This document shows positions 1-37,700 of a stretch of DNA of 64,000 nt, one piece after another. The position numbers and the translations under genes are program-made. Origin of the DNA: an uncultured virus (IMG/VR IMGVR_UViG_3300044846_003060). Its lineage: Duplodnaviria; Heunggongvirae; Uroviricota; Caudoviricetes. The notes below the pieces were generated by a model. The model did no database searches, was not told the DNA's origin, and was given only the letters and a program-made list of their open reading frames with translations. Each line of letters begins with the position of its first letter. Positions within the stretch are counted from its first letter, which is position 1. The stretch is taken from IMG/VR virus record IMGVR_UViG_3300044846_003060; one strand, 5' to 3'.

Positions 1-19
1 AGAGTCTGGTAATTATGAA

Positions 20-9888: not shown

Positions 9889-9902
9889 ACATAATAAGTT
9901 TA
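9886..9902. promoter_or_regulatory. Second copy of the palindromic element (TAAACATAATAAGTTTA)
   Basis: 15/17 identity to 3740-3756, same position relative to a stop codon. Confidence 0.3.
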
Positions 9903-9949
9903 TTAAACTTTAAAAATTTTAATAGTTTTACAAAAGATAAAAAAATAAA

Positions 9950-12900: not shown

Positions 12901-13153
12901 TTTTGTAGATCCTTTAGGTGGTCATGAGCTTAATTTTACAGTTCCACCTGTCTTAAGTTCAGGTAGTAATCAGTATCAATATCAATCTAAAATAAATGTG
13001 TATAATCCAGAAACAGGTAAGTTAGAAGAATATTCCGGATGGGAACCTACATTTACAAATGGTCAGGATATAGACGGCATTATAAAAGATTGGGAAGATA
13101 TGTCAGCTCAAATCAACCTGCAAAATCAAAATATTAAATACGGATTAGAATAA
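9950..13153 (+). CDS. Putative virion cargo/ejection protein
   Basis: 1067 aa, helical/coiled-coil character, no Cys seen, directly upstream of the three giant genes. Confidence 0.65.
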   Translation: MATYLQGVTDYIPQFQPFQPDLNFYASLMQTKQSQYDSNWKALNKVYGQYFYADLTRDNNVKKKEDLLKQIEFNLKRVSGLDLSLEQNVNQATQVFKPFYEDKNLMKDMAWTKTYNRETGRANALKGSAKEEDRKQYWDTGLKELNYRKDEFKEATDEEAMGMAGVSYTPYVNTMEKALKLAKDAGLSVESVKFTDDQRWIITQKNGQQLIEPLEKLFESSLGSDPGIQSVYKTQAYVNRKDYAFSNAGEFNGDKNAAEMKYLENSFNILKKQRDLQYKSIQKNSDVYDKRINDLQKLIDDKKAPVGSEDKLQDLKDNKKINDDVLARIQKESEMFSNSNSTSTTSSGWTNPYSDVATLRYKVDAGMASTLMEKDFGEAAQIYAYRDAKTSIKENPYKVLEIKHSQEMQQIHTSGAYKIQAQQMANQSREKVAAAKIQADAIKAEKERKADYDKWRVETGNGVYEEYEVTDAQGNKIIDPNTNQPLKDFRVVGNPNQKVTTKTIPNDNLTPIPDNKKANVYDVEKQNLANAQKKAQTDQALNTVFNTLNKLQNKIGPGDLAKLINPDYALAKDKDPMMSGLSAYMDNKGGILAGANQYMKDLMLVSKGTKDLMKVEDIQKGFQEKGADYLMSLSKKYGDTYISGLVERVDSYLAANAPYSPEFEMERQAMQGYVKPLKDYGKYEKVYFQWKDKADKAVAQQMTAQKEMIAAKEYSLKMTDSRGSIFQTKKEFLDANPTYTKLAQETFTGQSYGSSINSPGLGITGTGGRQSTFDEATNQAWNKYLQQVNKIQQKGGIPAGPAAASINGLVNNVFQNAANSVVANQKGGDGRRYYNEMMSTILNSGIAFDGKDGILTYGGFKQSAIKDAKEAETQQKLYTILNDFNTRFNDFTKPQPAIEIGGVLFAAGEKNRAGNFIRLPKEFLDGYYNQADPKKGFLSKDEYDGLLQNGLSIMADSDKIMNSLIEGTFTSPLEAVLKYNKELNFVDPLGGHELNFTVPPVLSSGSNQYQYQSKINVYNPETGKLEEYSGWEPTFTNGQDIDGIIKDWEDMSAQINLQNQNIKYGLE

Positions 13154-13159
13154 TAAATT

Positions 13160-19100: not shown

Positions 19101-20503
19101 AGTATGAAAAGGAAACTAAAGAGAAAGCACGTAAAATTACATTTAAAGAAGCTCAGTTTATTTTAAATACTGTTAGAAAAGTACAAGATGAAATAAGACA
19201 ACTTGAAGAGATTAAAAAAGATTTGACTAATCAGATTAATTATTACAATAATCTAAAAACTGATCCATCAATGAGACTTATTAATAAGTCTGAGATTAAT
19301 CAAAAGATTGTTAAGGTTAAACGTAAGATATCTACAATTGAAAAATTAATAAATATCTTAAGAAATGCAATTAGAAAATCATTAGAATATCTTCAAGAGT
19401 ATTTAAAAATCTTTAATAAATATAATACTAAACTTGATAGATTCAGAAAAGATACCGGTTTCCAAGAATTATCAGCTGATGAAATTAGAGCATTGATTGA
19501 TTCTTTAGATCCAAATGATGTATCTACACTAGATAGATATCCTCAACTTAAAAAACAATTTGACACTCTTGTAGATAAAGTTAATAAATCCATGGATGAT
19601 GTTGAGTTTACTGATGAAGTCATTCAAGTTGAAAGAGATAGATTAGAAGAATTAGTTGCTGCCCATAAAAAGTATAATGATCAATTAAGATACTTGCAAG
19701 AGTTATTAGAACCAGTTGCTGCTGATGCATTTTATGAAAGTCCTTTGTCTGATAAAAATGCACCTGATGCACCTAAACCAAAAACAGGTGGTACTCCTGC
19801 TCAACAAAGAATTCAAACTAGAATTGAAGAAACTAATAAAGAAATCCAAGATGCTAAAGATGATATGGGTGACACTGTAGGATCATTTAGTCTTAGTGAT
19901 ATAGAAGAAGCCCCTAGTGGACAACCTGCTGTTAAAACTGAAGGATTTAAAACTCTTTCAGATATGGTAGAAGCTGCTAATGATCTTATTGAATTAAATA
20001 AGATCTATGATGTAATTACTGACTATACTTTAACAGTAGATGAGTTAGATCAACTATCAGATCTTATTGATCAGAGAACTGAAGCATTACAAACTAATAC
20101 AGCAACTATTACATATAATGAAAATAATATTTCAAAAGGTGATAGATTTATCGTAAAAAATGCTATATTTATTAATAAGGAAATTTTTGCAGAACCAGGA
20201 AATTCACTCTTTATAGAATCTGTTAATGAAAATGGAGTTACAGTATATAAAGTGTTGGGAGGTGAAACAGAAAATCTTACCTTTGAAGAATTAACTAATA
20301 ATACAACTCTTGATAACATGTCAAACATCCCACAAGAAGAACCAGTAGTTCTATCTACAGAAGATAAAAATGTAATTAAATCTTCATTAGATGCAGCTAA
20401 TTCAATTACTACAGATGACTTAGATGCAGTTAAAGATTCAATTAAAAATAAATCAATGGATGATTTAGAGAATGATTTATTAGAAACTAATGTTTGTGAA
20501 TAA
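13160..20503 (+). CDS. Giant putative ejection protein with an internal PD-(D/E)XK nuclease domain
   Basis: 2447 aa; hydrophobic Gly/Ala segments near the N-terminus; GEIDLLIVD...VDIKSG...QQTAY nuclease motifs at ~18130-18290; long coiled coils; stop overlaps next start (TAATG). Confidence 0.75.
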   Translation: MAEDTGIPFNPLDPLGPDVGKVDLPTIDPIGLSPFEGDNINVPTLENYKNVYDIPAVNILPPQSRLVNQAPNVRQLATGTVPGKTPSPVKSSASDRAMAWMAKWKGQNATRNAQPKDSFGRIYSYKDAPNGDAFMERYQAFGQEKFDELGFSPIRNNEALYNDNTTWWQRHSRMMTNSFWPLFFRGFVSGPKSLAKAMTGDFSADPEEADFYERAAAIGQDSTGGFGSFFNNTAMNFGYTAGIITEAIAEEGIALLLAPETGGASVVAATANNMRKLGTVGKTISMSRKLPNFASKGMNLNRASRAQAVARSSAAYGKVLNNSIKGIGGTINGSRGFWNAVRTNNIVKFLNPLDNTIDAIAGVGKNLDNLTGLAKSYQVVNKTAGGLYRDMRALNMALSEARLEGGLVQNSTYEKLYNDYYMKNGETPDDEMQRAMLQQAIDAGQETLLWNVALVYGTNKITFPNIMGPKGGIKNFLRSKTDDILNLDSKVGKMVIRKNKDVVKKGGLKNKYKGEFVEYSFKETLKSFAKDPIRKSAKGALVYLKGNIAEGLQENVQETLSMGLENYYVNKFESNALRAHLFNRAATEYSKDKSEYISEAWKKFNPFTSEGFEIFASGALMGLFASPINQSVEWASIAYNKNFNKEEYNKYIEAKSNYAKGVAATMNRMYSDPQAFFESKIFNYATQDQIFSAKKFGSRKIALDASDEAIVDTVTAFLETGNYDMLKHYIGEYNNMTAEEIEEDLGLEKGLGQKYKDRVNNVLDKANQIEETYNEINKRYPSPINLGDYKKGTDEYKRAAIFNSAWNLAKRNAVFLNSSYKDSLERMSSIVNAVSSDPSLSKTLSARDMEMLTNVSKMKSERDMLKAEIDAVKGSGTASRFDLTGAGKKQKKLDALDEFIKAYDYFQNYEVFDIEEQLDYLEAEGKLKDIKDNDGNALSEKDAREEAKKFLLAKLKVEPKSEEATLQAKTNLETAYKNFLRASANLNEGTYFEEGADKAFELLLDHYKLGRESNIMADYINLLHNPKEFAEHVERNYEWMSRLYENRQDHYDKLVNKQLAHIELNAILNALADRNVFISEEDAINFLRNPRMIPEEFFDNTRKAVIREGHPEYEELRTLFVIASATAIRGVADPTNEDLERNLDFLDEEMQKEIDALPQIEVKRGIKSLDTMGDPFVGIQAVFDQLGNDQYIEVSYLDAAGKEQKQIFYKKDDQLYYDNDKGNKVELDAITAQFLDGDIYTLKLEPKDQEAVKEIKERYAQRRIDYINKMSEKVANTAAEEAQNRFIPFTSATPYEDMDVELRELLAGAYNEYLDDNPELMEKVVDLDDYAYAEERDSFIRTNRIAKEIIDRYNKKKLAEQATTPTGEIEAPVIEINGQMIDFATLTDAQIRNKIRSLTKAADKLSEDIEALPEDKRNKADIERLAKMRFNINLAEKYLANRVKNNRSAKMETVKDIINREILRFQDGITKTSNNSKYVIDDDLYTRVTTAIESLKKDAYNYKNINIVLAEFNKTIGQGKSVDDFIAALKTRLPIGTDGMSKYVYKVLARNLKQVIEPEDPKAKKLSADELKNYLKEQISELTYEESRIGGNYLDAEIRKFLDEGEAQFDETKIDKAAFDAIFGPNSVLAKLKTRQDNGEIKIYANNIKLFDKDSKIAGEIDLLIVDREGAVSIVDIKSGNKDKWSGFHDAANPYSKKETYLLQQTAYANMFYNMTGIMPKVYLLPIEIESDPNVDLDEKTGLPIGGKILTAKYATSPVQLGENLIVLDPNTAYGDETIQEKVDTLIPRKEFVPAEPATTPLQEVSDEEFQDFVDNRNVSQSRLDDITYKISRGIELTERELAISQEFVADINFKLIQLAQQEQENQVGDDAESATGKAVLDEVSKALTESEKETRQRNIDILNRRISILESRALENDKSLGELQDTLGFLQNMLDSSVEIAGLEFEALMNSANSLYELANKLKSAKQVKRGEKIKARAGQYEKETKEKARKITFKEAQFILNTVRKVQDEIRQLEEIKKDLTNQINYYNNLKTDPSMRLINKSEINQKIVKVKRKISTIEKLINILRNAIRKSLEYLQEYLKIFNKYNTKLDRFRKDTGFQELSADEIRALIDSLDPNDVSTLDRYPQLKKQFDTLVDKVNKSMDDVEFTDEVIQVERDRLEELVAAHKKYNDQLRYLQELLEPVAADAFYESPLSDKNAPDAPKPKTGGTPAQQRIQTRIEETNKEIQDAKDDMGDTVGSFSLSDIEEAPSGQPAVKTEGFKTLSDMVEAANDLIELNKIYDVITDYTLTVDELDQLSDLIDQRTEALQTNTATITYNENNISKGDRFIVKNAIFINKEIFAEPGNSLFIESVNENGVTVYKVLGGETENLTFEELTNNTTLDNMSNIPQEEPVVLSTEDKNVIKSSLDAANSITTDDLDAVKDSIKNKSMDDLENDLLETNVCE

Positions 20504-23500
20504 TGAAAATTACTTGTGCTCTTAGTAAAGAACATTTACTAAAACTTGCTGCTGTTATATATAAAGATATTGAATCATACCAAGCAGAGAATAAAGCCTA
20601 TGATGCCAGAGTTTTAATGAATCAGTTATATGATAAATTAAATAAAGCACAAGGTCAAGAAGTTGCCTTATCTTATATGCAACAGATGCCATTTTTAGTT
20701 GGTCAAATTGCTTTTAAAGAAAGCACTGAGCTCATTGAAGATTTTGCTATTAATGATCTATTTAAGTTAAATAAAGAATTCAGAAATGAAGATTCTGGAG
20801 TTCAATCTTTATTAAATTTTTTTGGTAAGACAATTGATGCATCTACTCTAAAACTACTTGCAGATGCAGAGTTAAATAATCCTGTTGAGAATGATGGGCC
20901 ACCAATTGCTGAAGAACCTCCAATAGAAAAATTTACTGATAAGAGATTAAAAGTTTTAGTTGACAATGCTATATCAACTACCTGGGAAGAGTTTTTAGAA
21001 ATGGATCCTAATTTAAAAGTTGATGAAACAATAGAGAATGTAGATCCTGCTAAAACTACTGTATATAATACACTAGATAGACTTAGAAAGTTAACTTCTG
21101 GTGGAACTGCCTTAGATACTATAGTAATGGATGATAACAAGGTTAAACTTAGAGTTTGGTCTCTTAATGCATTTCCTCAAGACTTACTATATCAAAAGAC
21201 AAAAGATCTTAAACAAAGAATAAATACATTTCAATCTGGTAAAGCTAAAGATCAAGGTGAAGTAAAACCGGTTACTGAACAATTCATGGTTGTTCTTACA
21301 AATGAAAAAGGTCAGATACTTTATTTTAATGAAGCAGGTGTTGTTACTCCTAAAGAAAATGGAGGTAAACCTGTTTATCAAATGCTAAGAGATGTTAGAT
21401 TAGAGAAAGGTGGTGAGTATAGAGTTACAGATATATATGGTAGAGAGGATATGATCCTTGGTTCTGCTCAAACTGCTCAAGCAAGAGTAAAACAAATGGG
21501 TTATAAATCCATTGATATGTTTGAAAAATCTGAAGGTGTTAAGTTCTCAGATTTTGTAAATCAAATTGAAGAAGAAAGACAAGCAAAGTTTAAAGAGTAT
21601 TATGATTTTAGACAGTCCTTAATTGGAATGCCAGCTAATAGACAAATATTTTTACCACTTGTTGATGTAAGTAATGGTGTTAGAAATGGTAGAGTTAGAC
21701 CAGGAACTATGAACATCAATAACTTAAGATCCTTTACTCCTGAACAAGCTGAAGCTATACTACAATCAATTACATTATTAGATACTGATTATATTACTGA
21801 AGATAGAACACTTAAAGCTAATACATCAGCTGTTCAAATTAATGGAGAAGTATTTGAAGTTGACAGACCAGATATATCAACTGATCTGGCTACAAAAATA
21901 GCTAAGGTGCTTACTTCTAAAGATCTAAGTATTACAAGTAAGTTGGACTTTGTTCAACAGTTTTTAGATAACGCATTAGATGAAGATGTTAGAAGACATT
22001 TTATAAAGTATGATGCTGACCAAAAAAAATTAAGATTTTTATATAGAACATATATAAATGCTCAGTTTAAAGAAATTAAAAAAACAAATCCAAAAGCTGC
22101 AAATACATGGTTGGAAGTTGATTTAACTGGAGGCCCTGCAGCTGAAGCAAAAATTATTGAAGTTCTTTTGAAAGGTAAAGGAACTTTAAAAAAAGAGAAT
22201 AATAAAATTGTATTGGATAAGAACGGTATTCCTGAAGTGGGAAGATATTATCCAGCTAAAATTAAATACGATAAAGGTTTACTGCAAGACGGTACTTATT
22301 TTGATTATATAGAAGATCCAAATAAACCTGGAGAATATATGTTCAGTGTAGGTTCCTATAAAACAGGATTACTTCCAACAATGGATGCTAAAATTGTATT
22401 AGGAAAATCTAAATCAATTCCTTTGTTTAATAGCTACATGATTTTTGCAATTCCAAATGCATTTTCAGAATCTATTGATCAAATTAAAGATGAGAATGAA
22501 ATAAAAGGAGAGCCTTCAGAAATACGTAAGAAGTATAATGAGTTAGTAGATATATTAAAAAATTCTCCTGATCAAAATCCAAGTTTAAAAGCAACAGTTA
22601 CTGAATTAGGAAAGATAACACAGACACCTACAGGTAATTATAGAAGTATTGATATTACAATTGAAGGTCAAGAAGGAACTTTTAGATTGTATAGAGTTGT
22701 AGATACTAGTGCTAAAGTTGGAGATGAGATAAGTTTAATACTTAGAGATATTGAAGTACAAGATGGTATGGGATATCCTAATACTATTGTAGGTGTAAGA
22801 GATTTTGAAGGTAGAAGATATGACTTTGGATTCTTACAAGACTCATTCCGTAGTAAAGAATATAATGAACCATCAAGACAACCTGTACCATTAAATACTG
22901 AAGCAATAGAGGAAGCTAAAGAAGAAGAAGAACTTGATGATATAACAGATACACAATCTGAAGTAGGTGAGAGTAAAGATATTCCAATAACTCCTATTGA
23001 ACCTGGTAAAGGTAGTATAGGTAGAATACTTGATGAGGATCCGGGGTTTGTTCTTGATAGAAAAACATGGCTGAGTCAATCAGGAATTACTCAAGAGCAA
23101 TTAAATAATGCAAAAGATTGGTGGGAGAATTCATCTTCTGGTAAGCTTTTAAATAAATACATTGAACTCAGTGTAGCAGCAGATTTAGTTAACTCTGATG
23201 TATATGCAAAATTTATTGCTAAAGGAGCATGGCTTTTAGGTTATGCTGATTACAAATTACAGCCAGGTAAACTTGGAGTTATTGCTTTAAATCCCCGTAA
23301 TGGTGGGAACTATGTAGATGTTTATCATGAAGCTTGGCACGTATTTTCTCAGTTATTCATGACTAATGAACAAAGAGTTAAATTATATACAGAGTTTAGA
23401 AATTCAGATCCTGCATACAAGGATATGTCCTTCTTTGAAATAGAAGAAAGACTAGCAGAAAACTTTAGAGAGTATGCAAGAAATCCTAAACCTGTTAAAA

Positions 23501-26500: not shown

Positions 26501-29500
26501 AAGAAGAATTACATAAGAGAACTTCTGGTTTGATTTCAAATGGTCCAAGATTTAGGACTGATACTGCTGCTCAATTATTTATAAATAATAAAGCTTTATG
26601 GGCAAAAAGTACTTATGCATCTACTTTACCTGCTGAGTATCAAAACTTTGAATACAATGGTACATTTAATACCGCCATCATGGAGGATATTACTAGAGAT
26701 AGTGAATACTTAGATATAATTAAAAAAGGTCTTGAAAAAGATTATGCAAAAAGATATGCTTTACTTCCAACAGCAGAAGCTAAAAAACTTATAGAAGAAA
26801 GAGTAGCAAAAGAAATTGCTAAATATACGGCAGATGAAATCAAAGAAGGTGATGGTCAAGGTTATATTACTGTTGATGCATATAGAACATTAAAAAAATT
26901 ACAAAACCGTTGGTCAGATCAGCAAGAAGTTCTATATCAAAAAGTAATTAAAGGAAGTGAGATTACACCAGCAGAATATATTGAACTTTTTCCTCCATAT
27001 AAATTACAATACTTTGGTCCATTAGTAGCACAAACAAAAGATTTTGCTAATGGTACAGTTTTACCAGTTACAGCTTTCCATAAGTTTGCCTTGGTACCTT
27101 TAATTCCATCATGGGTAAAGGGTTCTGATCTTGAAGTATTGCATAAAGAAATGCTAAGGAATAACATTCAATATGCAACATTTGGTAGTGGATCTAAGGT
27201 AGGTGCAGTAACATCTGATGGTGAATTAGATAAAATTTATGAGCCCGGTTCAGATAATAAAAAATTAAAAAGTAAAATAAACTTTACTAAAAATACTATT
27301 AATGTTGAGTACTTAAAAGAAGTAACCAGTGTACCTAGTAAATTAAAAGGTAAAGTTATATTCTCAACTCAGTTAAGAAAATTAATTCTTGAAGGATTAT
27401 TTATTAAAGGAGAACTTGTAAATGGTGCTAACAAAGATATAGTAGAAGGATACACTTCATTGGTTGACTCTTATACTAAATTATTAAAAGAAGAATTATT
27501 AACTGAAATTGGTTATACAAAAGAGAATGGAGTATATGTTGGTAAGCCTGCTAAATTATTAAAATTAATCAAAGACAATTTAGCTAAAAAAGATTACCCA
27601 AGTCACCTTCTTGATGCATTAAAAACAAATCCTGATGGTTCACTTAAGTATGACTTATCAAATTTTATTGATGCTCAAACTATAGAAAGAACTGTATTAT
27701 CAATTGCTGAAAATAGATTTGTTAAACAAAAACTAAAAGGAGAAGCTTTAGTTCAAGTAGCAAGTTCCATGACAAATGGTTTATGGACTGCAGGAAATAA
27801 ATTTAAAGCAGGATCTAAGGAAGATGTATTAAAGTATATGGGTACTAATAATCTACCTTTCTATTATCCTGGTGAGGATGGTAAAACAAATGCAATGAAA
27901 GTTGCTATTGCTTTACAAGGAGACTTCTTCAATTTATTAAACTTAAATGACTTAGATGGTCAACCAATTAAGACAAGAGAAAGACTTAATGAACTGATCA
28001 AACAAGATGAATGGTTAAATAAAGATAACAACCGTAAAGCTATTACCATGACTGCTGTTAGGATTCCTGTACAAGGACTTAACTCTATGGAGTTTATGGA
28101 AGTTTGGGAGTTCTTGGATCCTTCTGCAAGTAATATTATTATTCCTCCTACAGAACTAGTAGCAAAATCAGGGGGTGATTATGACGTTGATAAGCTTACT
28201 ACATTCATGCCTAACATAGATAAAGATGGTAATGTTTATACTTCAGATAAAAATGCAAAAGCTTTACTTGATTCTATTAATGAAGCAGACAGTAAAGATA
28301 AAATGGCCTTAATCAAGCAAGCTAAAAAAGTAATGGAAAATGACTTGATCACTAGTATCAGATCTATTCTTGAATTACCAGAAAATTATGCAACTCTTGT
28401 AAGACCAAATGATACTTACATGCTTAAAGATATTGCTGATGAATTAGCTGATGTTGTAGTTGATTATGATAAATTCCAAACAGTAAATAGAAAATTCAAA
28501 GAATATAGAATTGTAAAAGGTAAAAAAGCAATTAGTCCTACTACTACATTAGAACCTTTATATAATATTGATAAGTTTAATGGTAACATGATTGGTAAAG
28601 CAGTACTTGGTATTGGTGCCAATGAGAATGCTTTTAGTCCTTTATTAAATTCTATTGGTGCTAAAATGCCATTGACTTATCAGGAAAGTGAATTTGATCC
28701 AAAAATCAATAAGTATAAAGATATAAAGGATGGTGAAACTTATAGAACAAGATTACTATTACGTCATAATAAAAATGCTGATGGTACAATTTCATTAGCA
28801 GATGTAAACTCTGTTGATGCTGTAAATAAAATAGCTGACTTGTTTTCACAAGGTATGAATGGATGGGTTGACGTTGAAAAAGATCAGTGGATCTTTTATA
28901 TTCAAGGTAACTTAGAAATATCTCCTGTATTACTGTATTTATTAAAAGCTGGTGTACCTGTGAGAGATGCTGTTATGTTTGTGTCTACTCCTCTTATTAG
29001 AGAGTATGCAAATAAACAAAGACTATTGAAAAGTCCATATGCAACTCTAATGGGTATTGCACCTACTGAACCTCAGTTTGCTCAATATAATGCAGCTAAT
29101 GAAGTATTAAGTCCTGCTATAGATGCTTACTTGAAAAGAACTATTGATAAAGCTGTATTCTCAGGTTATAGTTTTGATACTGCATCAATAGCTTACTATG
29201 GTTTAGGTCCTAATGGTAGAAAACAATTAATGACTCAAGAGTTCAAAGGAACTGATGATCAAGTGATTAAAGATCAAATTAATGACTTCTTACAATATGT
29301 TGATTCAAATGATGTCATGAGAATCAATTTTTATCAGCAAGCAGATAGAAGACAAAATAATAAAGTATACAGTAAACCAAGAGTTTCAAATAAAGAAATT
29401 TACAATTCAGCTGTACAATTAAGTGATAATAATTTAGATAGCTTTGGTAATTTTGATAAAGCTAAAATTGAACAATTAGTTAAGTCTAAAAATGATACTG

Positions 29501-32500
29501 ATAAATATTCTGATTTTTCAATGGCTGCATTCTTGCATTTTATTGAGATTGAAAAATATTTAAAGGGTCTAGGTAATGTAAAAAGATTATCTAAACCAGA
29601 TACTCAAACATTTAAAACTATACAAGAGGTTTTATTAAGAGATCTAAATATTGCATACTTAAATGATTACAGTAAAGTTGATAAAACTACTTTTGATAGA
29701 TTAAGAAATGACAGCATTCTTGCTGCTCTTGCAGATAAAGATATAATAACTCAAGTAATAAGTCCATTGTTTTCATTAAGAAATAGCAAGCAAGTATTAG
29801 ATCAGATTGTTTCTACTATCAATACTAAAACAGAAGCTCTCAAAGAAAGATATGGTGGTCTTGGAGCAGACAACATTAGTAGGTTTATTGAAGAGTATAA
29901 AAATGCCATCAATACATTTATACTACAAAACTTCTTAAGTAACAATATAAACTCTAATGGAGAGATTGTTTTAGTGCCGGATACTTACAAAGGTTTTGAA
30001 GTTGTTACTAATGAAAATCTTGAAACAGATGTTGAAGTAACTGAGAAGGATGGTAAGAAACTTATTAGAGTTAATCCAAAAAGAATTGAAGCTGACTTTA
30101 AAAATAAAAACTACTTAGTAACCAGTAGCTCTAACAACTCTTACAAGTCAAGAGGCCTTGAAGCATTCCAAGTTGGTGATGATGTATTTGAATCTAAGTC
30201 AAGTTACTATAGATATGTTATAGAAAGAGAGTATTTAAAAAATAAAGGATTTACTAAAGAAGAACTTAACAGTATTGCTTTATTGAATACTTATAATCCA
30301 TCTGTAATATTGAGAAGAGGTACATATTCTTTTACAGATCAGTTATTAGAATCTATTCAACAGTTTCCAGAACTTTCTAAATATCCTGTAGTAAACCAAT
30401 TAAGTTTATATGCTTTTTCTAATGAATTTAATGTATTAACTTTAAATGATAAAGGTTTACTTGATGGTGCTCAAGCTGATATATATGCTCAGAATATTAG
30501 AGAACTAGCTAATCCAAAAATCCAAAAGATTGCAAACACTAAGGATAATGAAAAAATAAGTAGATTATTTTACATGCTTCAATTAATGGCAACTTACCAA
30601 CATGGTTCAGGTCCTTCAATTGATGGCTTTAATGAAATACTACCTCAAGATTCATACTTAAGTGTTATGAATAATGCTAGTCCTTTATTCACTAAATACT
30701 ATTTTAATGAAGATACTCTTGAATATATTGTTGATGTTCTTACAGCAGATAAATTAAGAATTAAGAACTATACAAGCATGCCAACAAGTAATAATACATT
30801 TGTTATTGAGGCTAAAGCTGAAGGTGCTCAACCATCTATTAAACCAACAACTCCTACTTTAACTGTAAATGATCCTAAAGATTTTACAAATCATTCGGGT
30901 GGTGCTGCTTTATCTGATACTGAATGGGATCAAATAGGTAGAGAGTTTGGGGTAACTAATCATAAACATTATAGAGAGCCTTTAGATTATGTAGATACAA
31001 AAGGTGAAGCTGCTAAAGGAAGTAAAACATTAGATTCTAAAAAATTACAAGCAGCTGGTATTGAACCTACTCATATTAGTCAAAAAGACTATAATGAAGG
31101 TGCACAAAAAGCTACAAAAGCTTTTAGAATGATGTATACTGATTCTGAAAATAAATCAGTAAGAAGTGCCTATATTATTCGTAACTGGTTACAAGTTAAA
31201 AATGCTGATGCCATATTTGCATTAGGTACTATAAAACAACCTGGTGAAAATGCATCTGATAAAGCTGGTGAAACAAGAATAGCTGCTGTCCCTATTGTTA
31301 AAGGTGGTACAGGATATGCTGTTCAAATGGCTATTAATGAAGGTAAACCTGTTTATGTATTTGATGGTACTAAAGAAGGATGGTATAAGTATGATTATTC
31401 AATTAAAAATTTTGTAAAAACTGATACACCAACTCTTACTAAAAACTTTGCAGGTATAGGAAGTAGAACACTAAGTACAAAAGAAGTAATAGACAAATCA
31501 TTACAAGCCATCAGAGATGTATATACTCAAACATTTGGGGCTAAACAAAAATCAGATGGTACAACAGTTAAATACAAGTACTATGGTGCTATGTATGATA
31601 TTGTTGTAGAGAATGGACTTGGTATAGATGTATTAAACTATAAAGGGAAACCGGCTAAAAAAGCAATTTTATTAGCTTACTTTAATCAAAATCCAAATAT
31701 AGATCCTCAAAGTACTGGACCTGATCCAATAGTTTTAAGTGATGAAGAAATAAATAATGATGATACAGGTAACTCAGATCCAACAACAGGTAATACATTT
31801 ACTTTTGCTGATGGTTATGAGATTGAAACTCCTTTTAAATTAAACAAAGAACAAGAGGCAGCTCTGTTAAAACTTGAAGAATTCTATAATGATCCTAAAA
31901 AATTCAATAATGAAATTACATTGATTGGATATGCAGGAACTGGTAAAACTTCAATCATGGCTCTCTTTGATAAATGGTTGAATAAAGGATGGTTTGGACC
32001 TAATATAGTATATACTGCACCAACTCATAGAGCAAATGCTGTTACTAAACTTAAGAATCCTAAAATTAAAGTATTAACTCTCCATTCCTTATTTGGATTT
32101 GGTCCTGAAGTAGACTTTGAAGGAATGGATTATGACGTAAGAGATTTACAATTTGCTAATAATAGAAATGGAAAAATTGATAAAGGTCAAATACTTATTG
32201 TAGATGAATCTTCTATGATTACTGATGAATTATATGATTTCTTAGGTCAGCAAAAAGATAAGTATGATCTTAAAGTTATATACATGGGTGATCCAGGACA
32301 GTTAGGTCCTGTGCAAAATAAAGGAGGCTTGACATCAAAAGTATTTTCTAATCCCACATCTAGTATTACTTTAACTAAAGTAGAAAGAACAGGAGATAAT
32401 CCTATACTAAAAGAATCAACTGCACTAAGATCTGGAGGTTCTTTATCATATCAGTCTGCAGAAATTAATGGAAAAGGTGTTGAATATATAAATAGTACAG

Positions 32501-34722
32501 CTAGAGAAAATCAAATACTTGCTGAAAATCTTAATGAAATGAGAGACTCAGAAAACTATTTGTATTTTAGAATGTTAGCTGCAACAAATCCTGAAGTAGC
32601 TAGATTAAATAAAGTAGCGAGAGAAATATTATATCCTCAAACCTATCAAGAACAATTAGTAGTTGGTGAAATTCTTATGGGGTATGATAATTTTGGTAGA
32701 GATTATAAAACAGGCCAGTCTTTATTATATAACTCTGGAGATTATATGATTACTCAACTTAAGAAAGATAATAAAGAAGTCTATATAACTAATTATGAAA
32801 AACAAGGAGACAAATTTGTAAATATCGGTTTTGAAGAATTGAATTTTACTGGATACAATGTAACTCTTAAAAATCTATTGGATCCAGAAGCAAAACCATT
32901 TGAAGTCTTTATACCAGATATTGTAGGTAATGATGATGCATCTACTAAACTTGCAGATTCTATTCATAAGTTAAACTATATGGGTAAGATTGCTGGTTAT
33001 GGACAAGATAAAGCTAAATATTTTGAAGCAGCTTCTAATTTATCTAAACAAGTATTATTTATGAATGACGTAAAAGGTTTAACTGATAAGTCTAAAATTA
33101 AAAAAGCAATAGACTATGGTTATGCTCATACAATTCATAAATCTCAAGGTGGTACTTATACTAAAGTATTTATAAATGATCCTAGTATAACAGGATTAGT
33201 AGGATATATTAAAGATAGAAGAAGACTTACCGATGATCAAGCACAAACTGTTGAAAGACAATTAAAGTATGTTGCTGTATCAAGAGCTACTGACTATGTA
33301 TATATTTCAACTAATAGAAGTGCTGCAGGAAAACCTACTAGTTTTGATGATCCGGCCTCTGGAGATTTTGATACTGTAGGAACATTTAATATCAATGATT
33401 TAAATCCACCATCTAATCCACCAATATCAGGAGAAAGAAAACCTATTGAACCAATAAATGCTCAAGAAATTGAAGATGGTTTAATCTTACAAAAAGGTGT
33501 TCTTACTAAAGAAGAACAAAAACAATTCTTTCAATTTGGTAAAACAGTTCTAGAAAAGAATGGTTATAATCCTTTTGCACAATATGTTATGGCCTCTGCT
33601 GGTAAAATGGAATGGAGTCCTGAATTTGTAGTTGATAAAAATGGAAAAGGTGTAGATAGACCAGGAAATTATAATACTGGAATCATTCAAATTAAGAAAA
33701 ACCTAGGAGGAAGAGACAGTAAAGAAAAAAGATGGAATTATAATTACTACCTCACTAATTTTGATGGTACTACTATAGCTCCAATACCAAATAATATTAT
33801 AAGTATACTAGAAAAAGTTACAGGTCAAGATATGTCTGACTATGATACAGTTCTAATTAACTTATATCCATTAGGTAGAACACTTGGTTGGCATCAAGAT
33901 ATAACTGAAGATTATAGAAACATGGATAGAGATATTATATCTGTATCTATTGGAGCAGATGCTGATTTTACTTACAATAAAAGAGATAAATTAAGTTATG
34001 CTCCTGCAGCAGATAGTATTCCTGATGGTGTTGTTAATTTAAAGAGTGGGGATGTTATGAGTTTTGGTGGTAAATCTAGACTTGTTCAACATACTGTAAC
34101 TAATGTAACAGGTCAGACAGATTTAGGAACCATAAATCTTGCTAACTCTAATGTAAATAAATATTTTAATGGTGGTTTAAATTTATCTAACTGGAGAATG
34201 AACTTTACATTTAGAGTAGCTGATTCTAAAAATAATAATGGTAAAAGAGGATTAGTTTCTACAGTAATTCCAGGTATTAAAAAGTTTGAAGGACAAATGA
34301 CCTATGCTTATGGTCAAAATAAAAGAGCTGGTGTAATAGCTAATACAACATTTGATGCCATATTAACGGGTGAAAGAACAGCTACTACAAGATATGAAAC
34401 TTCAGATAATATTGAATACTGGAAAAAAGCCAAAGTTGGAGATATTATTACATGGAAATCTGATGATGGCCGTACTGTAGATGTAGAAGTAACAAGACCA
34501 CTACATAAATTAGTGGGGTCAGGTAAAACACCAACTGATTGGAGCCAACTTGAAGGCTGGTCAATATCTTATTTTAATGAAAAGGTTAGACCTAAACTTG
34601 ATAAAGCTTGGCAAATTGAGTTTAAATTACCTGCACCGCCTGCTGCTGAAACAGAAATTAATGATAACTTTATTGATCCTTTTGAAGATGATCAAGAAAA
34701 TAATTGTGCATATCCTTTTTAA
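20503..34722 (+). CDS. Polyvalent virion RNA polymerase (crAss-type two-barrel RNAP) fused to zincin, SLOG/DprA-like, SF1 helicase, AlkB-like and ASCH domains
   Basis: 4739 aa; HEAWH 23326-23340; DGQG ~26851; RIP 28060-28068; catalytic DYDVD 28177-28191; HSGGA...GGTG...FAGIGSR; GYAGTGKT/DESSM/GDPGQL/HKSQG/YVAVSRA; HQD...H...RMNFTFR; ILTGERTATTR. Confidence 0.88.
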   Translation: MKITCALSKEHLLKLAAVIYKDIESYQAENKAYDARVLMNQLYDKLNKAQGQEVALSYMQQMPFLVGQIAFKESTELIEDFAINDLFKLNKEFRNEDSGVQSLLNFFGKTIDASTLKLLADAELNNPVENDGPPIAEEPPIEKFTDKRLKVLVDNAISTTWEEFLEMDPNLKVDETIENVDPAKTTVYNTLDRLRKLTSGGTALDTIVMDDNKVKLRVWSLNAFPQDLLYQKTKDLKQRINTFQSGKAKDQGEVKPVTEQFMVVLTNEKGQILYFNEAGVVTPKENGGKPVYQMLRDVRLEKGGEYRVTDIYGREDMILGSAQTAQARVKQMGYKSIDMFEKSEGVKFSDFVNQIEEERQAKFKEYYDFRQSLIGMPANRQIFLPLVDVSNGVRNGRVRPGTMNINNLRSFTPEQAEAILQSITLLDTDYITEDRTLKANTSAVQINGEVFEVDRPDISTDLATKIAKVLTSKDLSITSKLDFVQQFLDNALDEDVRRHFIKYDADQKKLRFLYRTYINAQFKEIKKTNPKAANTWLEVDLTGGPAAEAKIIEVLLKGKGTLKKENNKIVLDKNGIPEVGRYYPAKIKYDKGLLQDGTYFDYIEDPNKPGEYMFSVGSYKTGLLPTMDAKIVLGKSKSIPLFNSYMIFAIPNAFSESIDQIKDENEIKGEPSEIRKKYNELVDILKNSPDQNPSLKATVTELGKITQTPTGNYRSIDITIEGQEGTFRLYRVVDTSAKVGDEISLILRDIEVQDGMGYPNTIVGVRDFEGRRYDFGFLQDSFRSKEYNEPSRQPVPLNTEAIEEAKEEEELDDITDTQSEVGESKDIPITPIEPGKGSIGRILDEDPGFVLDRKTWLSQSGITQEQLNNAKDWWENSSSGKLLNKYIELSVAADLVNSDVYAKFIAKGAWLLGYADYKLQPGKLGVIALNPRNGGNYVDVYHEAWHVFSQLFMTNEQRVKLYTEFRNSDPAYKDMSFFEIEERLAENFREYARNPKPVKSQPVRNTLFRKILNFLKQLFGKVSPKDIIDPNIMEIGMVNELFEALYFNNDNVLNKFSPSVDNLKWDELDRGVVVKTEEKNSKGKNIKVEVLNEQDGRALANTIDSVLSEIIDESSKFYNKKSGTVKILTDSYNKGLAYDKVRKKFIEDIKQWQKELLIKDAKFDTYTTLDQLDSNAFAVIRSKKGDHKYIFLRGQVESFKNLTADTKLGEREKGKLYKDNIEIVADYFEHDLIKDRKGRGASIIIVDSRQEAEDQFKNYIEIDPITNEQKAPSIQSIKFNEDRVAARLFTPEQQLKLDNIRIYETALKHWDSIIAHHENNSTFDIIKQKYILLEEDPSTNSSLDTTRANETRTGDKQIGEFTLQEMANKETVYILKSLFKKEKKGTGYVNVYDRFGNKQLADFRTVWNAVVRATNSAKDPQKIYDALVNAAKFSPELQQLIDYKLPLPNQVNQSSSEFDITTSFFTDFSRPKVPYIQLLAFDDGVEFSTEVTDAGIDVSKTLKIFEAKFRSDKNDSYIEKDNNISRLNLNAVLQNFRNKNSANLILDEDKAFKFLTSIGFYFDDLTAIKDELKDFNNRKYYYIPRIFETIKLVHEASLDPNLSKEGRELINKFRMSPLRVLRSGIPENVLGQKDSSLYKNGLSQKTIVDRLLTLQSKYGKTGSNFSVLNPERNRVNLHTDDNTATVIADAINQVSNKSDMWTKTQYRLLNSFNPAVNAFTNRSQIMKALFEPSNKRRTDRFLEIIMVAGTQLTLNDVFLSGTSTTSLDGQGKFLQDFHTFLKSGYLEFLRPGSKSSSFGFILRGGFPIDVKGMGKNKEQHLYADIDDFLTANNKETEVIERIILPYLAGELERINKFKENPKAKNYIGYNQKVTDSGKRAGEEYAIFEGILDDKTKSDLLEKINNSGIDLINYLKNDPDLKSSLIKQIKGYFTTRSTDVYNRLNEGKYVDPKLYNKVPGDLTKSEKEKVLAKTFMYNYWIHSVETQILFLGDISQYNHLKEELHKRTSGLISNGPRFRTDTAAQLFINNKALWAKSTYASTLPAEYQNFEYNGTFNTAIMEDITRDSEYLDIIKKGLEKDYAKRYALLPTAEAKKLIEERVAKEIAKYTADEIKEGDGQGYITVDAYRTLKKLQNRWSDQQEVLYQKVIKGSEITPAEYIELFPPYKLQYFGPLVAQTKDFANGTVLPVTAFHKFALVPLIPSWVKGSDLEVLHKEMLRNNIQYATFGSGSKVGAVTSDGELDKIYEPGSDNKKLKSKINFTKNTINVEYLKEVTSVPSKLKGKVIFSTQLRKLILEGLFIKGELVNGANKDIVEGYTSLVDSYTKLLKEELLTEIGYTKENGVYVGKPAKLLKLIKDNLAKKDYPSHLLDALKTNPDGSLKYDLSNFIDAQTIERTVLSIAENRFVKQKLKGEALVQVASSMTNGLWTAGNKFKAGSKEDVLKYMGTNNLPFYYPGEDGKTNAMKVAIALQGDFFNLLNLNDLDGQPIKTRERLNELIKQDEWLNKDNNRKAITMTAVRIPVQGLNSMEFMEVWEFLDPSASNIIIPPTELVAKSGGDYDVDKLTTFMPNIDKDGNVYTSDKNAKALLDSINEADSKDKMALIKQAKKVMENDLITSIRSILELPENYATLVRPNDTYMLKDIADELADVVVDYDKFQTVNRKFKEYRIVKGKKAISPTTTLEPLYNIDKFNGNMIGKAVLGIGANENAFSPLLNSIGAKMPLTYQESEFDPKINKYKDIKDGETYRTRLLLRHNKNADGTISLADVNSVDAVNKIADLFSQGMNGWVDVEKDQWIFYIQGNLEISPVLLYLLKAGVPVRDAVMFVSTPLIREYANKQRLLKSPYATLMGIAPTEPQFAQYNAANEVLSPAIDAYLKRTIDKAVFSGYSFDTASIAYYGLGPNGRKQLMTQEFKGTDDQVIKDQINDFLQYVDSNDVMRINFYQQADRRQNNKVYSKPRVSNKEIYNSAVQLSDNNLDSFGNFDKAKIEQLVKSKNDTDKYSDFSMAAFLHFIEIEKYLKGLGNVKRLSKPDTQTFKTIQEVLLRDLNIAYLNDYSKVDKTTFDRLRNDSILAALADKDIITQVISPLFSLRNSKQVLDQIVSTINTKTEALKERYGGLGADNISRFIEEYKNAINTFILQNFLSNNINSNGEIVLVPDTYKGFEVVTNENLETDVEVTEKDGKKLIRVNPKRIEADFKNKNYLVTSSSNNSYKSRGLEAFQVGDDVFESKSSYYRYVIEREYLKNKGFTKEELNSIALLNTYNPSVILRRGTYSFTDQLLESIQQFPELSKYPVVNQLSLYAFSNEFNVLTLNDKGLLDGAQADIYAQNIRELANPKIQKIANTKDNEKISRLFYMLQLMATYQHGSGPSIDGFNEILPQDSYLSVMNNASPLFTKYYFNEDTLEYIVDVLTADKLRIKNYTSMPTSNNTFVIEAKAEGAQPSIKPTTPTLTVNDPKDFTNHSGGAALSDTEWDQIGREFGVTNHKHYREPLDYVDTKGEAAKGSKTLDSKKLQAAGIEPTHISQKDYNEGAQKATKAFRMMYTDSENKSVRSAYIIRNWLQVKNADAIFALGTIKQPGENASDKAGETRIAAVPIVKGGTGYAVQMAINEGKPVYVFDGTKEGWYKYDYSIKNFVKTDTPTLTKNFAGIGSRTLSTKEVIDKSLQAIRDVYTQTFGAKQKSDGTTVKYKYYGAMYDIVVENGLGIDVLNYKGKPAKKAILLAYFNQNPNIDPQSTGPDPIVLSDEEINNDDTGNSDPTTGNTFTFADGYEIETPFKLNKEQEAALLKLEEFYNDPKKFNNEITLIGYAGTGKTSIMALFDKWLNKGWFGPNIVYTAPTHRANAVTKLKNPKIKVLTLHSLFGFGPEVDFEGMDYDVRDLQFANNRNGKIDKGQILIVDESSMITDELYDFLGQQKDKYDLKVIYMGDPGQLGPVQNKGGLTSKVFSNPTSSITLTKVERTGDNPILKESTALRSGGSLSYQSAEINGKGVEYINSTARENQILAENLNEMRDSENYLYFRMLAATNPEVARLNKVAREILYPQTYQEQLVVGEILMGYDNFGRDYKTGQSLLYNSGDYMITQLKKDNKEVYITNYEKQGDKFVNIGFEELNFTGYNVTLKNLLDPEAKPFEVFIPDIVGNDDASTKLADSIHKLNYMGKIAGYGQDKAKYFEAASNLSKQVLFMNDVKGLTDKSKIKKAIDYGYAHTIHKSQGGTYTKVFINDPSITGLVGYIKDRRRLTDDQAQTVERQLKYVAVSRATDYVYISTNRSAAGKPTSFDDPASGDFDTVGTFNINDLNPPSNPPISGERKPIEPINAQEIEDGLILQKGVLTKEEQKQFFQFGKTVLEKNGYNPFAQYVMASAGKMEWSPEFVVDKNGKGVDRPGNYNTGIIQIKKNLGGRDSKEKRWNYNYYLTNFDGTTIAPIPNNIISILEKVTGQDMSDYDTVLINLYPLGRTLGWHQDITEDYRNMDRDIISVSIGADADFTYNKRDKLSYAPAADSIPDGVVNLKSGDVMSFGGKSRLVQHTVTNVTGQTDLGTINLANSNVNKYFNGGLNLSNWRMNFTFRVADSKNNNGKRGLVSTVIPGIKKFEGQMTYAYGQNKRAGVIANTTFDAILTGERTATTRYETSDNIEYWKKAKVGDIITWKSDDGRTVDVEVTRPLHKLVGSGKTPTDWSQLEGWSISYFNEKVRPKLDKAWQIEFKLPAPPAAETEINDNFIDPFEDDQENNCAYPF

Positions 34723-34731
34723 TTAAATAAA

Positions 34732-37700
34732 ATGGCAAAAAATTGTAGAGATACTGAAAAATTTAAAACAGCTGAGGCATCTACTAAAGCTTGGTTTAAA
34801 ACAAATGGTTTATTAGATAGATTTTTAAGAATCCCTGAAGGTAAATTAGTAAAGTTTAGAGAGGCTAATGCAGCTTTATCTAAAAAAGCTAATAATGAAA
34901 TGAATATTCCAGGTAGACTCTTTACAGAACTTGAAGGAGGTACAAGAGCTTTACCAAACATAATGATGTTCCATAAGATAGATGCTTTTAAAGGTAAATT
35001 CTATCCGGGAAATAACTATTTAAAACCAGAATATTTACCAAGAGAAACTAGACCACTCTATGAAACTGTTGCCATTGATGAAGAAGCAGTTAGTGCTGAA
35101 AGAGCAGACAAGTTATTTAATGCATTAGGTCAAAAATATGAGGCAGCCTTTGGTATACCATATGTTATGGTATCAGAATATGAGGCTAATATGATATTAC
35201 AAAATAGCAATACTCCTTATAACAATCAACCAGGTTTCTTTTATGGAGACAAGGTTTATTTTGTTAAAGGTAAAGCTACTATGAACACAATGGTTCATGA
35301 ATTCTCACATCCCCTTATAAAAGCTATTGCATTAAATAACCCTAAACTATTTAACAATCTATATGAAACTTTACTAAAAAGTGATACAGGTCAAGATATA
35401 GTGAATCAATTAGTAGCTGAAGGTAAATTACAACCTGAGACTTCAAGATTTAAAGAAGAAGCCTTGGTTAGAGCAATGGAAAAAGATGCTGCTGAGAAGT
35501 TATCTAATGTAGTTAAAAGTGACAGTGCCTTTAAGGAGTTCATAAACATGCTAATGTATGCTATTAAAAAGATACTTGCTGGCATGACTAAGATGGTTAG
35601 TCCTAAAAAATTAACTACTACAACTACACTTTCTGAACTAACTGATATGATGTTATTTGAAGACTTTCAAATGGAATCTATTAAGTTTGATAATACTGAT
35701 TTTGCAGACTTTGCATCTGAGTATGATGCTTTACTTGGTGCTTTACAAAACTCCACTGCTAAACAATTACAAGAAGCTATCAACAGAGCCTATACAGAAA
35801 GTACTTTCCAGTTAACCCAGTTAAGAAATGCTCCTTGGAAACTAAAAGAAGATTTAAGTAGAATTGGTGGAGAAAAAGTATTGAGATCTATCAGAGATCA
35901 TTTGAAAAGATATCAAACTGTTTCTGCAGACTTATCTGATATTTCAGTAGATGAAATTTTAGATGCCATGGAATCTCAGCAAGAAGAGTTTAGAATAAGA
36001 GGTATTGCACTTATTAATTCTATAAATGAAGCTAAGATATTCTCAGAAAAAATAGAACAGATATTGCAAGAAATGCAGACTAATAAGAGACATCTTACTG
36101 CTGCTGGTATAGCCAAAGTACAATATTTTAGTGAGTATATTCAGAGGCAGAAAGAGTTTCTTACTGATGTAGAAAAAATATTAGGCCGGGGTAGGGACAA
36201 TGAGTTTGTAAAAGAACTTAGATCAACTATCAATATTATCAATGATGCTTCTGACTTAATCAAAGAACTGAAGACAGATGTAGTCACAGAAATATTTGTG
36301 GATAATACTGAGTTCATGCAAGAAGAAATGGATAGAAAGATTTCTGAAAGAATTAGGCAGATAGCTAAGGCAGATAATCTATCAGAAGCCCTGACAGAAG
36401 AACTTGTAAAAGAAATTACCAGTCTACCTAATGTAAAAAAATATGACATTGACTTAAAGAAATATCCTCTTAATCCTAAGAGAGCTCAAGTATTGGCTAA
36501 TGAATTAAAAGAATACTTCTTTAAAAGATTAAATAGAGATGCTATTGAAAAATATTTAAGTGGTGAAACTGAAGACCTAACATTCTTTCAGGCTTGGTTA
36601 AACCCATATCTATCTATGGATGATCCTTTAGGATCTTTTGTAAGATATATGAAGACTAAATTATCTGAGGCTGAGAACAAAAGTTTATCTCAAGCAAATG
36701 ACATTGCTAATACTCTAGTTCCTTTATTAGATGCTGTAGGTTATAGTCCAAATAATACAGGCCAACTAGGTAAGATGTTATTACAAACAGATAAGACTGG
36801 TTACACTGATTCTAATGGTGAGTTTGTTGAGTTTGAATTATATACTTTCTTAGATCAATTTATTAATTGGAGAAGAGATAAAGCTGAATTACAACACAAC
36901 TTTGATAAAGCAAGAGAGAGTGGTGATAAAGAAAAGATTAAATCTGCACTACAAGCACTATGGGAGTTTGAAGAAAAGTACATGCACCGTAAGTATAAAC
37001 AAGAGTACTATGACCTTCAAAATATTTGGAAACAAGATAACACAGTTAGAAACCCAATCACAGGATTAGATGTTAGTGTTTCTGCTTCACTATCTACAGA
37101 AGCATTCTTAGAAAGACAATCAGGTTTGGATAAACTCAATCAATACAAACACGAGGCTTATACTGAAATGGATGACCTTTATGAGTTTACTGAATCAGAT
37201 GCTGCAAAGGCAGAGTATGAGCAATTATATCAGATAACTAATGCAGATGGTACAAATAAAACCGGTGATGAACTTCTAAAAACTCTTGTAAGAAGAAAGT
37301 ATAGATATGAATCTAAAAGATTTTATGAGTATAGTTTGAATGAAGAAAGAGTTCAAAGAGACTACGACAATTATGTTCAGGAGTTAGCAGTTAGAGGTAT
37401 AACCAAAGATGCTAAACCTGAAGAGTGGAAAGCAGAAATGAAGAAGTTTATTGATAAAAACTTCCGTATTGCATATTCTGAAGATTATTATAGATCTAAG
37501 GAAGATCTTTTTACACGACTTACAGATATAACTAATAAGTATAAATCCCCCCTGGCAGATAAAATGAGAGATCTTTATCTAGAAAGATGGAGACTTACAA
37601 ATGCTATTACAGATAAGAATGGTACAACTAATGCCTTACAATATACTAATGCTGTATTAGAAAAAATTAAAGATCTAGAAGAAGAGATTGTTAAGCTTCA

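Follow-up and report, generated by a model that had tools for sequence, protein, structure and literature searches.

How do crAss-like phages store megadaltons of protein and pass it in an ordered manner through a narrow tail? This is an open question for the most abundant viruses of the human gut, and a 64,000-nucleotide stretch of DNA from an uncultured virus (IMG/VR record IMGVR_UViG_3300044846_003060; this whole stretch is hereafter called the window) raises it in a specific form. Three consecutive genes in the window, here named g1, g2, and g3, encode giant proteins that together carry four cysteine (Cys) residues, each located at a terminus that faces the neighboring protein. What are these residues for? 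We give a probability of about 70% to the reading that the facing termini dock on each other and that disulfides between the end cysteines would join g1, g2, and g3 into one covalent chain, with a peptide bond doing the same job in lineages where the genes are fused. The genes and the cysteine codons, as read in the window, are as follows.

13160..20503, + strand: g1, 2447 aa, 276 kDa; the candidate first link, with a single Cys at 2446 (penultimate, ..NVCE)
20503..34722, + strand: g2, 4739 aa, 536 kDa; a virion RNA polymerase (RNAP) homolog and the candidate middle link, with Cys5 and Cys4735 only
34732..40536, + strand: g3, 1934 aa, 223 kDa; the candidate last link, with a single Cys at 5 (MAKNC)
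20495..20497, + strand: TGT codon of g1 Cys2446
20515..20517, + strand: TGT codon of g2 Cys5 (MKITC)
34705..34707, + strand: TGT codon of g2 Cys4735 (fifth from the end, NNCAYPF)
34744..34746, + strand: TGT codon of g3 Cys5 (MAKNC)

The three proteins contain 4 Cys in 9,120 residues (1, 2, and 1, respectively), every one of which lies at a facing terminus, and the two outer ends (the N terminus of g1 and the C terminus of g3) are Cys-free. This count, the positions of the residues, the coordinates of their codons, and the Cys-free outer ends had all been given in an original prediction made by reading the sequence, and a recount of translations and codons agrees with each of them. Likewise, the mass of about 1 MDa given there for the set was computed here as 1035.5 kDa. 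The terminal-Cys observation is real and is confirmed in every detail.

Elsewhere in the 120,701-bp genome of this phage, open reading frames (ORFs) with a length of 150 aa or more hold 272 Cys in 23,159 residues (1.17%). At this background rate about 107 Cys would be expected in 9,120 aa versus the 4 observed (Poisson P(≤4) = 1.7e-40), and the rough chance that four uniformly placed Cys would all fall at most 5 residues from an inner terminus is 2e-11. The depletion is specific to these proteins because the same phage has Cys-rich tail-fiber-like proteins, one of which carries 71 Cys in 1003 aa and has neighbors with 15, 10, and 18 (genome G000 114032-120701, L007). At the two junctions, the g1 stop codon overlaps the g2 start codon (TAATG), and g3 starts 9 nt past the end of g2. 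An antisense ORF of 154 aa lies over the g1/g2 junction (window 20071-20535, - strand) and is most likely spurious.

The original prediction held that the pattern follows the order of the proteins, and proposed that conservation and pairing of the terminal cysteines be assessed across crAss-like relatives. This was done with homologs of g2 (n = 37, with 25-45% identity over the first 600 residues), g3 (n = 45), and g1 (n = 9), and the pattern is strongly conserved. The exact two-Cys pattern of g2 is present in 33 of the 37 homologs, with the N-terminal Cys (position 4 or 5) found in 36/37 and the C-terminal Cys (last 9 residues) in 35/37. A single internal Cys occurs across 147,007 residues of these g2 homologs. 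For g3, a Cys is present at positions 3-6 in 43 of 45 homologs and is the sole Cys in 40 of them, and a C-terminal Cys is seen in none (0/45). All nine g1 homologs have one Cys in the last three residues, and an N-terminal Cys is again absent (0/9).

Two of the g2 exceptions, P0005 and P0030, are each shortened compared with a relative (97% and 92% identical, respectively) that does end in Cys. A reading of the P0030 ending (..HEILH..) as a g2+g3 fusion was rejected, since no g3-profile match was obtained and the protein is merely shorter than its 92%-identical relative. The exception P0035 has the same false start as a locus (L092) described below, and P0002 has one extra Cys. Two g3 homologs are without the N-terminal Cys: P0068, which begins only at the HExxH region as if its gene call were truncated, and P0077, which has a different start. 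The distant g3 match P0080 has 13 Cys.

Alignments of the same proteins give a similar picture. C2446 is invariant in a g1 alignment (A2), and C5 is invariant in a 30-row alignment of g3 (A1). Furthermore, Cys2446 is the sole invariant column in a 48-row alignment of the last 250 aa of g1 (A3, mean column identity of 16%), and C5 is the sole invariant column in a 48-row alignment of the first 350 aa of g2 (alignment A4, mean column identity of 24%; this label is unrelated to the phage A4 discussed below). The N-terminal Cys of g2 is located within a conserved short motif, M-x-I-T-C-A-L, and the C-terminal contexts are very diverse except for the Cys. The terminal-Cys pattern ranks with the most tightly conserved traits that these proteins have.

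Pairing was evaluated at the level of gene junctions in IMG/VR. Single-sequence locus queries matched almost only the contig of the window itself, and alignments were used instead; the resulting profile-guided scans yielded 66 loci around g3 and 79 around g1. A junction was counted, once per distinct sequence, if two + strand ORFs of at least 1400 aa were separated by a gap of -60 to +200 nt, and it was scored as carrying both Cys if one was present in the last 10 residues upstream and another in the first 10 residues downstream. Removal of duplicates reduced the g2/g3 junctions from 43 to 34 and the g1/g2 junctions from 69 to 50. Loci that do not include a complete junction were left out (13 of the 66 had no complete g3 start), and the junctions of extra proteins of ~580 aa, which fall under the length cut, were read separately.

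All 34 distinct g2/g3 junctions and 47 of the 50 distinct g1/g2 junctions carry both Cys, and the spacing of the junctions varies from -13 to +36 nt while the Cys pattern stays. Together with the homolog counts, these values bear out the claim that the pattern follows protein order and is conserved and paired in relatives. Each of the three missed junctions has a distinctive feature. At L084, the start was called 12 codons too early, ahead of MKVTC. At L092 (~16645-16775), a frameshift in a run of ten A soon after the g2 start cuts off the true start MVNC... At L151 (~20148-20190), one in-frame TAA interrupts g2 within A-rich sequence, neither side of it carries a Cys, and the break looks like a pseudo-split. 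The L092 frameshift and the L151 in-frame TAA are either assembly errors or slippage-prone sites.

The same arrangement is found in named and cultured crAss-like phages. In phi14:2, the sole Cys of gp67 (1797 aa) is its last residue, gp66 (the RNAP) has Cys3 and Cys2179 of 2180, and gp65 has Cys3 as its sole Cys. In crAss001, gp47 has a sole Cys at 2339 of 2341, gp50 has Cys5, Cys1334, and Cys2404 of 2412, and gp49 has a sole Cys at position 5; cr112_1 and cr128_1 show the same Cys pattern as crAss001. In the Leptolyngbya phage Lbo-JY46, the only Cys of a 1552-aa protein is its last residue, and the next protein (2748 aa) has a single Cys, at position 4. The three homologous proteins of phi14:2 and crAss001 are virion-borne (PMC10172136 section 10; Drobysheva preprint section 8). 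A small gene of cr128_1 (L165 12094-12339) is annotated as "thiol-disulfide isomerase and thioredoxin."

If terminal cysteines serve to join neighboring proteins, what happens where the genes are fused? Four g1+g2 fusions from IMG/VR (L135, L154, L160, and L161), which have g1 homology in front and RNAP homology behind, contain 0 Cys in 3,464-4,300 residues. Fpv1 gp33 (4401 aa) has only a penultimate Cys, which faces gp34 (Cys3). Likewise, cr1_1 gp076 (4551 aa) has Cys4026 and a fourth-from-last Cys, the latter facing gp077 (Cys5), and in cr118_1 gp14 none of the four internal Cys is near the mapped junction, and a fourth-from-last Cys faces gp15 (Cys3). In Intestiviridae (LMMB and crAss002), RNAP is fused instead to the gp49/gp65-like protein, and this fusion has Cys3 at its N terminus (in crAss002 on the assumption of a start at Met33) and no C-terminal Cys. 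The ~2000-aa protein ahead of the LMMB and crAss002 fusions ends in a penultimate Cys. For crAss002 gp33 (L163 15151-15250), the true start is probably Met33, 32 codons downstream of the annotated one; the protein would then begin with MSC.., like MSCGNIK of LMMB.

The opposite event, in which a new break is introduced, is represented by an extra protein of 574-594 aa located between g2 and g3 in 6 of the 66 loci. It carries exactly two Cys, one at positions 3-7 and one third from the end, and the g2 protein ahead of it ends in Cys. A 75%-identical relative, L076, is without the extra gene, and over its final 27 residues the extra protein matches the 27-residue end of L076 g2 at 74%. The positions of this protein are as follows.

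L053 7887-9647, L064 1876-3606, L072 7863-9647, and L078 7905-9629; also L057 and L075: extra protein of no known family, between g2 and g3

Every real gene break has a Cys pair, and no fused joint examined has one. The Cys rule follows breaks and not particular domains.

Structure prediction of paired terminal segments had also been suggested with the original prediction, and it was run for the g1/g2 junction. The last 250 residues of g1 and the first 350 residues of g2 were folded together, each with its own 48-row alignment. The scores were 0.73, 0.77, and 0.74 (median 0.74) versus 0.00 for the best of 3 controls; the score mark is reached by 116 of 157 solved complexes and by 2 of 215 mismatched pairs, and these counts are only rough since custom alignments were used. 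At least 39% of contacts are shared between runs, and the partner predicted local distance difference test (pLDDT) value is at least 64. The predicted interface contains both Cys-bearing ends and involves the following regions.

20342..20500, + strand: C-terminal ~53 residues of g1 (2395-2447), including Cys2446; predicted to dock (fragment interface residues 198-250 of 250)
20503..20814, + strand: N-terminal ~104 residues of g2, including Cys5; predicted receiver (interface residues 1-25, 42-72, and 94-104)

The model supports docking of the g1 C terminus on the g2 N terminus. The pairing of facing cysteines, as first proposed, is therefore supported by the joint loss of both residues on fusion, by the new pair at the new split, and by this predicted docking.

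We propose the following mechanism. A distant crAss-like phage would carry g1, g2, and g3 inside its particle as cargo for injection. Each protein would dock through its C-terminal helix on the N-terminal domain of the next one, and once the particle is assembled, the two Cys that meet at a junction, one from each end, would oxidize within it to form an inter-protein disulfide. The product would be a covalent head-to-tail g1-g2-g3 chain of 9,120 residues and ~1.04 MDa, topologically equivalent to the single polyprotein encoded by some relatives. Other Cys residues would be selected against, which would prevent off-pathway cross-links in a crowded, oxidizing capsid. Such a chain could hold the set at 1:1:1 for joint packaging and ordered exit via the tail, after which the reducing cytoplasm would separate the proteins. 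The bond itself is a step that we infer by analogy with phage A4.

Several points weigh against this proposal. No experiment shows an inter-protein disulfide between these proteins in any crAss-like phage, and the crAss001 reconstruction left gp47, gp49, and gp50 unresolved (PMC10172136 section 10). The confidence of the fold concerns docking and not S-S geometry. The reducing state of the host cytoplasm would restrict bond formation to within or after assembly. The analogy with A4 may reflect convergence, since the A4 proteins have no detectable similarity to g1-g3. Furthermore, the extreme-terminal position of the Cys would also follow from the splitting of one chain and is not in itself evidence for threading. 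Internal Cys are tolerated in the RNAP of several gut phages (8 in cr116_1, 9 in IAS, and 7 in LMMB). Finally, some terminal Cys have no evident counterpart. An 861-aa protein of LMMB (L014 6539-9124) has a single Cys860 and no matching Cys on the adjoining protein; crAss002 gp30 (L163 4456-6129) has a single Cys eighth from the end and Lbo-JY46 XAI97385 (L166 24334-26358) has a single Cys5, each with no obvious neighbor partner; and the last residue of an 833-aa protein of cr116_1 (L016 21606-24107) is its single Cys, with no N-terminal Cys on this protein though the preceding RNAP ends in Cys. The gp055/gp056 junction of IAS virus also has a Cys without an obvious partner, in a record that has ambiguous bases. 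Taken as a whole, the interpretation offered in the original prediction is partly supported.

The unpaired residues bear directly on one alternative, namely that terminal Cys form disulfides with non-neighbors, either as homodimers (g1-g1, g3-g3, or g2 polymers) or with the portal or other cargo. The LMMB 861-aa protein, crAss002 gp30, the cr116_1 833-aa protein, and Lbo-JY46 XAI97385 are all in line with such partners, as is crAss001 gp57, which forms a disulfide-bonded homodimer (PMC10172136). However, bonds to non-neighbors do not account for the finding that both Cys of a junction vanish together on fusion and appear together at a new split, nor for outer termini that never bear Cys (0/9 g1 N termini and 0/45 g3 C termini). 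In addition, the fold places the g1 C terminus on the g2 N terminus, and the bond in A4 joins neighbors (PMC12002296). We therefore consider this explanation unlikely for g1, g2, and g3. The smaller cargo-block proteins with unpaired Cys may form homodimers or have other partners, and a Pfam scan of these proteins and of the extra inserted proteins gave nothing above threshold.

A second alternative accepts the docked interface and assigns its paired Cys to other thiol chemistry, such as a shared metal, a redox sensor, or a transient mixed disulfide in assembly, with no stable staple. Sequence alone cannot separate S-S from S-metal-S, and docking is predicted without a bond. However, one Cys per end provides only two ligands, the alignments (A3 and A4) show no conserved adjoining His, Asp, or second Cys, and the one solved case, in phage A4, is a disulfide (PMC12002296). 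These considerations make non-disulfide chemistry quite improbable.

The cysteines might instead act separately in each protein as signals for modification or processing, for example for lipidation, as a protease site, or in terminal trimming. The N-terminal Cys of g2 does occur in a conserved motif (M-x-I-T-C-A-L), and section 8 of the Drobysheva preprint considers proteolytic activation of RNAP. A lipobox reading fails, however, since the Cys at positions 3-8 have no preceding signal peptide, and the lipoprotein explanation was rejected on this ground. Moreover, the C-terminal contexts are very diverse, and independent signals would not vanish in pairs on fusion, which leaves processing signals as a very remote prospect. 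Split inteins and native ligation were also rejected by reasoning, since a C-terminal Cys that is the last to tenth-last residue leaves nothing that could be an intein fragment, and the N-terminal Cys does not occupy position 1. A chance origin, or a constraint acting on the nucleotide sequence of the junctions (translational coupling, a ribosome-binding site, or RNA structure), which the TAATG overlap of g1 and g2 and the start of g3 9 nt after g2 might suggest, is already refuted by the depletion (P about 1e-40), by the junction counts, by retention of the pattern at 25-45% protein identity and at spacings of -13 to +36 nt, and by its retention in crAss001, cr112_1, cr128_1, and cr116_1, where the g1-like gene (gp47 in crAss001) is on the strand opposite to the other genes (gp50 and gp49), so that translational coupling or junction RNA is excluded as an explanation.

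The head-to-tail disulfide chain is separable from what might happen to it during infection. Ordered exit of the chain as one thread, with joints whose side stubs would be at most ~10 residues, followed by reductive release, is speculative and may well prove incorrect. Somewhat more doubtful is the general idea that the injected proteins constitute one "virtual polyprotein," in which a disulfide would replace the peptide bond at any break. In that case, a ~9,000-residue thread would exit as a single strand, like the one-chain polymerase of N4, and would then be cut by the reducing power of the cell, which would time RNAP release or activation to arrival in the cytoplasm. Genes would be free to split, fuse, or take inserted modules, given a Cys on each new end. 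The gp66 protein of phi14:2 was purified and assayed with dithiothreitol (DTT) (Drobysheva preprint), and this use of DTT fits a reduced monomer as the active form.

The order in which crAss-like phages pass protein through the tail is described only as "likely" set by packing and mutual interactions (PMC10172136 section 11). One Cys pair per protein junction is a conserved rule that can be read from sequence and tested cheaply in two cultured phages. It would give a handle on both ejection order and RNAP activation, and it explains why the number of genes in the module ranges from one to four between lineages. The rule also helps to correct gene starts and frameshifts in metagenomic annotation. 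Moreover, crAss-like phages, cyanophage A4, and N4 would be linked by one idea, which is that of a linear thread of injected protein.

What else do the three proteins carry? The original prediction had described them as crAss-like and the middle one as a virion RNAP homolog, and this assignment is backed by database searches. Residues 1-2999 of g2 match the RNAP genes of 34 crAss-like records, including phi14:2 g066 (tblastn), and blastp of g2 against phi14:2 g066 gives E = 3e-7 and 5e-5. The domains and motifs identified in the three proteins are as follows.

17816..18325, + strand: PD-(D/E)XK nuclease-like domain of g1, residues 1553-1722 (Pfam PF12705, E = 7e-5; PHROG 298, E = 7e-10)
28177..28191, + strand: DYDVD of g2, residues 2559-2563, aligned to the catalytic DFDID (1361-1365) of phi14:2 gp66
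31747..33324, + strand: Dda/PIF1-like helicase domain of g2, residues 3749-4274 (PHROG 325, E = 3e-72; Pfam AAA_30, AAA_19, and UvrD_C_2)
33697..34215, + strand: AlkB-like 2-oxoglutarate (2OG)-Fe(II) oxygenase domain of g2, residues 4399-4571 (Pfam PF13532, E = 3e-20)
35296..35310, + strand: HExxH of g3, residues 189-193, a zincin-type metalloprotease motif (H189, E190, and H193 are invariant in alignment A1)
39589..39717, + strand: LysM domain of g3, residues 1620-1662 (Pfam PF01476, E = 3e-6)

The role of the DFDID motif in gp66 and a zincin-like domain in phi14:2 gp65 are described in section 8 of the Drobysheva preprint. The HExxH region of g3 has no Pfam or PHROG family match. Searches with phmmer against PDB sequences returned only helicase and AlkB-type matches for g2 and none for g1 or g3. 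Likewise, the C-terminal 499 aa of g1 and the whole of g3 had no tblastn match in the phage collection, and their relatives came from metagenomic collections. Based on gene position and Cys depletion, we infer that g2 is packaged in the virion and injected. The helicase and AlkB-like domains (window 31747-34215) would also be delivered with the particle, and which of these two domains is carried varies among g2 homologs (Pfam).

The surroundings of these genes fit a crAss-type gene order, in which a co-directional block of giant genes follows the tail genes, and the portal, terminase, and capsid proteins appear to be crAss-type but distant. The best matches of the portal are Leptolyngbya phage Lbo-JY46 (33%), csAssE-Sib (27%), and crAss-like and Cellulophaga phages (22-26%). 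One large neighboring protein lies immediately next to g1.

9950..13153, + strand: Cys-free 1067-aa protein directly before g1; likely internal or injected as well, and outside the Cys chain

Homologs of this protein ("MATY...") have 0 or 2 internal Cys and no terminal Cys. It is one of three more large Cys-free proteins, the others being a 1370-aa protein (window 2-3742) and a 1498-aa protein (genome G000 9626-14122), the last of which has a transglycosylase/peptidase-like segment. All three probably belong to the injected set as well, without a part in the Cys chain.

How does this arrangement compare with known systems? Full-text literature searches, which covered main texts outside subscription papers and supplementary files, returned no mention of terminal cysteines of crAss-like phages. 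In the available text of PMC10172136, the string "cystein" occurs 0 times and "disulfide" is used 7 times, always for the tail or gp57; in that of the Drobysheva preprint, "cystein," "disulfide," and "Cys" occur 0 times, and counts for PMC7886860 and PMC13434306 are also 0. The original prediction knew of no description of such links. This holds for crAss-like phages, where nothing was found, but one such link is known in phage A4 (PMC12002296). A multi-link chain through a virion RNAP, together with a fusion and fission rule across crAss-like phages, appears to be undescribed.

Close counterparts are the phi14:2 gp67-gp66-gp65 and crAss001 gp47-gp50-gp49 sets. The g2 protein is homologous to gp66 and gp50, g3 has a zincin HExxH motif like gp65, and the terminal-Cys pattern is shared; however, g2 is twice as long as gp66 or gp50 and carries the helicase and AlkB-like domains. 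Disulfides of the crAss001 virion have been reported in the tail (tail barrel and fiber hubs) and in gp57, the disulfide-bonded homodimer (PMC10172136). These bonds indicate that inter-protein disulfides persist in a crAss-like particle, although they are static braces of the shell and tail and not links between injected proteins.

Schitoviridae resemble the crAss-like set in having a giant capsid-carried RNAP that is expelled through a narrow tail, and in strong suppression of Cys. Both N4 gp50 and DEV gp71 are without cysteines, and suppression of Cys is a general trait of the ejection operon in Schitoviridae (PMC11445570), which agrees with the remark in the original prediction that the N4 virion RNAP is Cys-free. 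The g1-g3 proteins are not wholly Cys-free in this manner, as internal Cys are absent and four terminal Cys are conserved. In N4, the N-terminal domain, polymerase, and C-terminal domain form one Cys-free chain of ~3,500 residues, whereas the corresponding string here is built from separate proteins with Cys only at the joints. The N4-type polymerase has been viewed as beads on a string, and the N4 and crAss-like polymerases are structurally unrelated (PMC13434306).

The closest known case is that of cyanopodophage A4, in which cryo-electron microscopy shows a disulfide between gp27 Cys1715 and gp26 Cys5, with the C-terminal helix of gp27 in a cleft of gp26 (PMC12002296). In the record of Anabaena phage A-4L, gp27 (1717 aa, with its sole Cys third from the end) and gp26 (1114 aa, with its sole Cys at position 5) are encoded by consecutive genes. 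Thus, like g1-g3, A4 has large internal ejection proteins with a sole Cys at the upstream C terminus and at position 5 downstream, and the predicted g1/g2 docking would be of the same kind, with a C-terminal segment on an N-terminal domain. No match at E<=1-10 was found between A4 gp26-29 and g1, g2, g3, or the crAss001 and phi14:2 proteins (phmmer, and hmmsearch with the g1 and g3 profiles). A4 differs in having one link, two proteins, and no RNA polymerase, and it is a 42-kb phage of Saffermanviridae. The available text of the A4 report treats the bond as a structural detail and makes no mention of conservation, fusion and fission, or a chain. Regardless, the gp27/gp26 signature of A4 is a solved disulfide, so that in one unrelated podophage the kind of sequence signature described here has been proven to be a disulfide.

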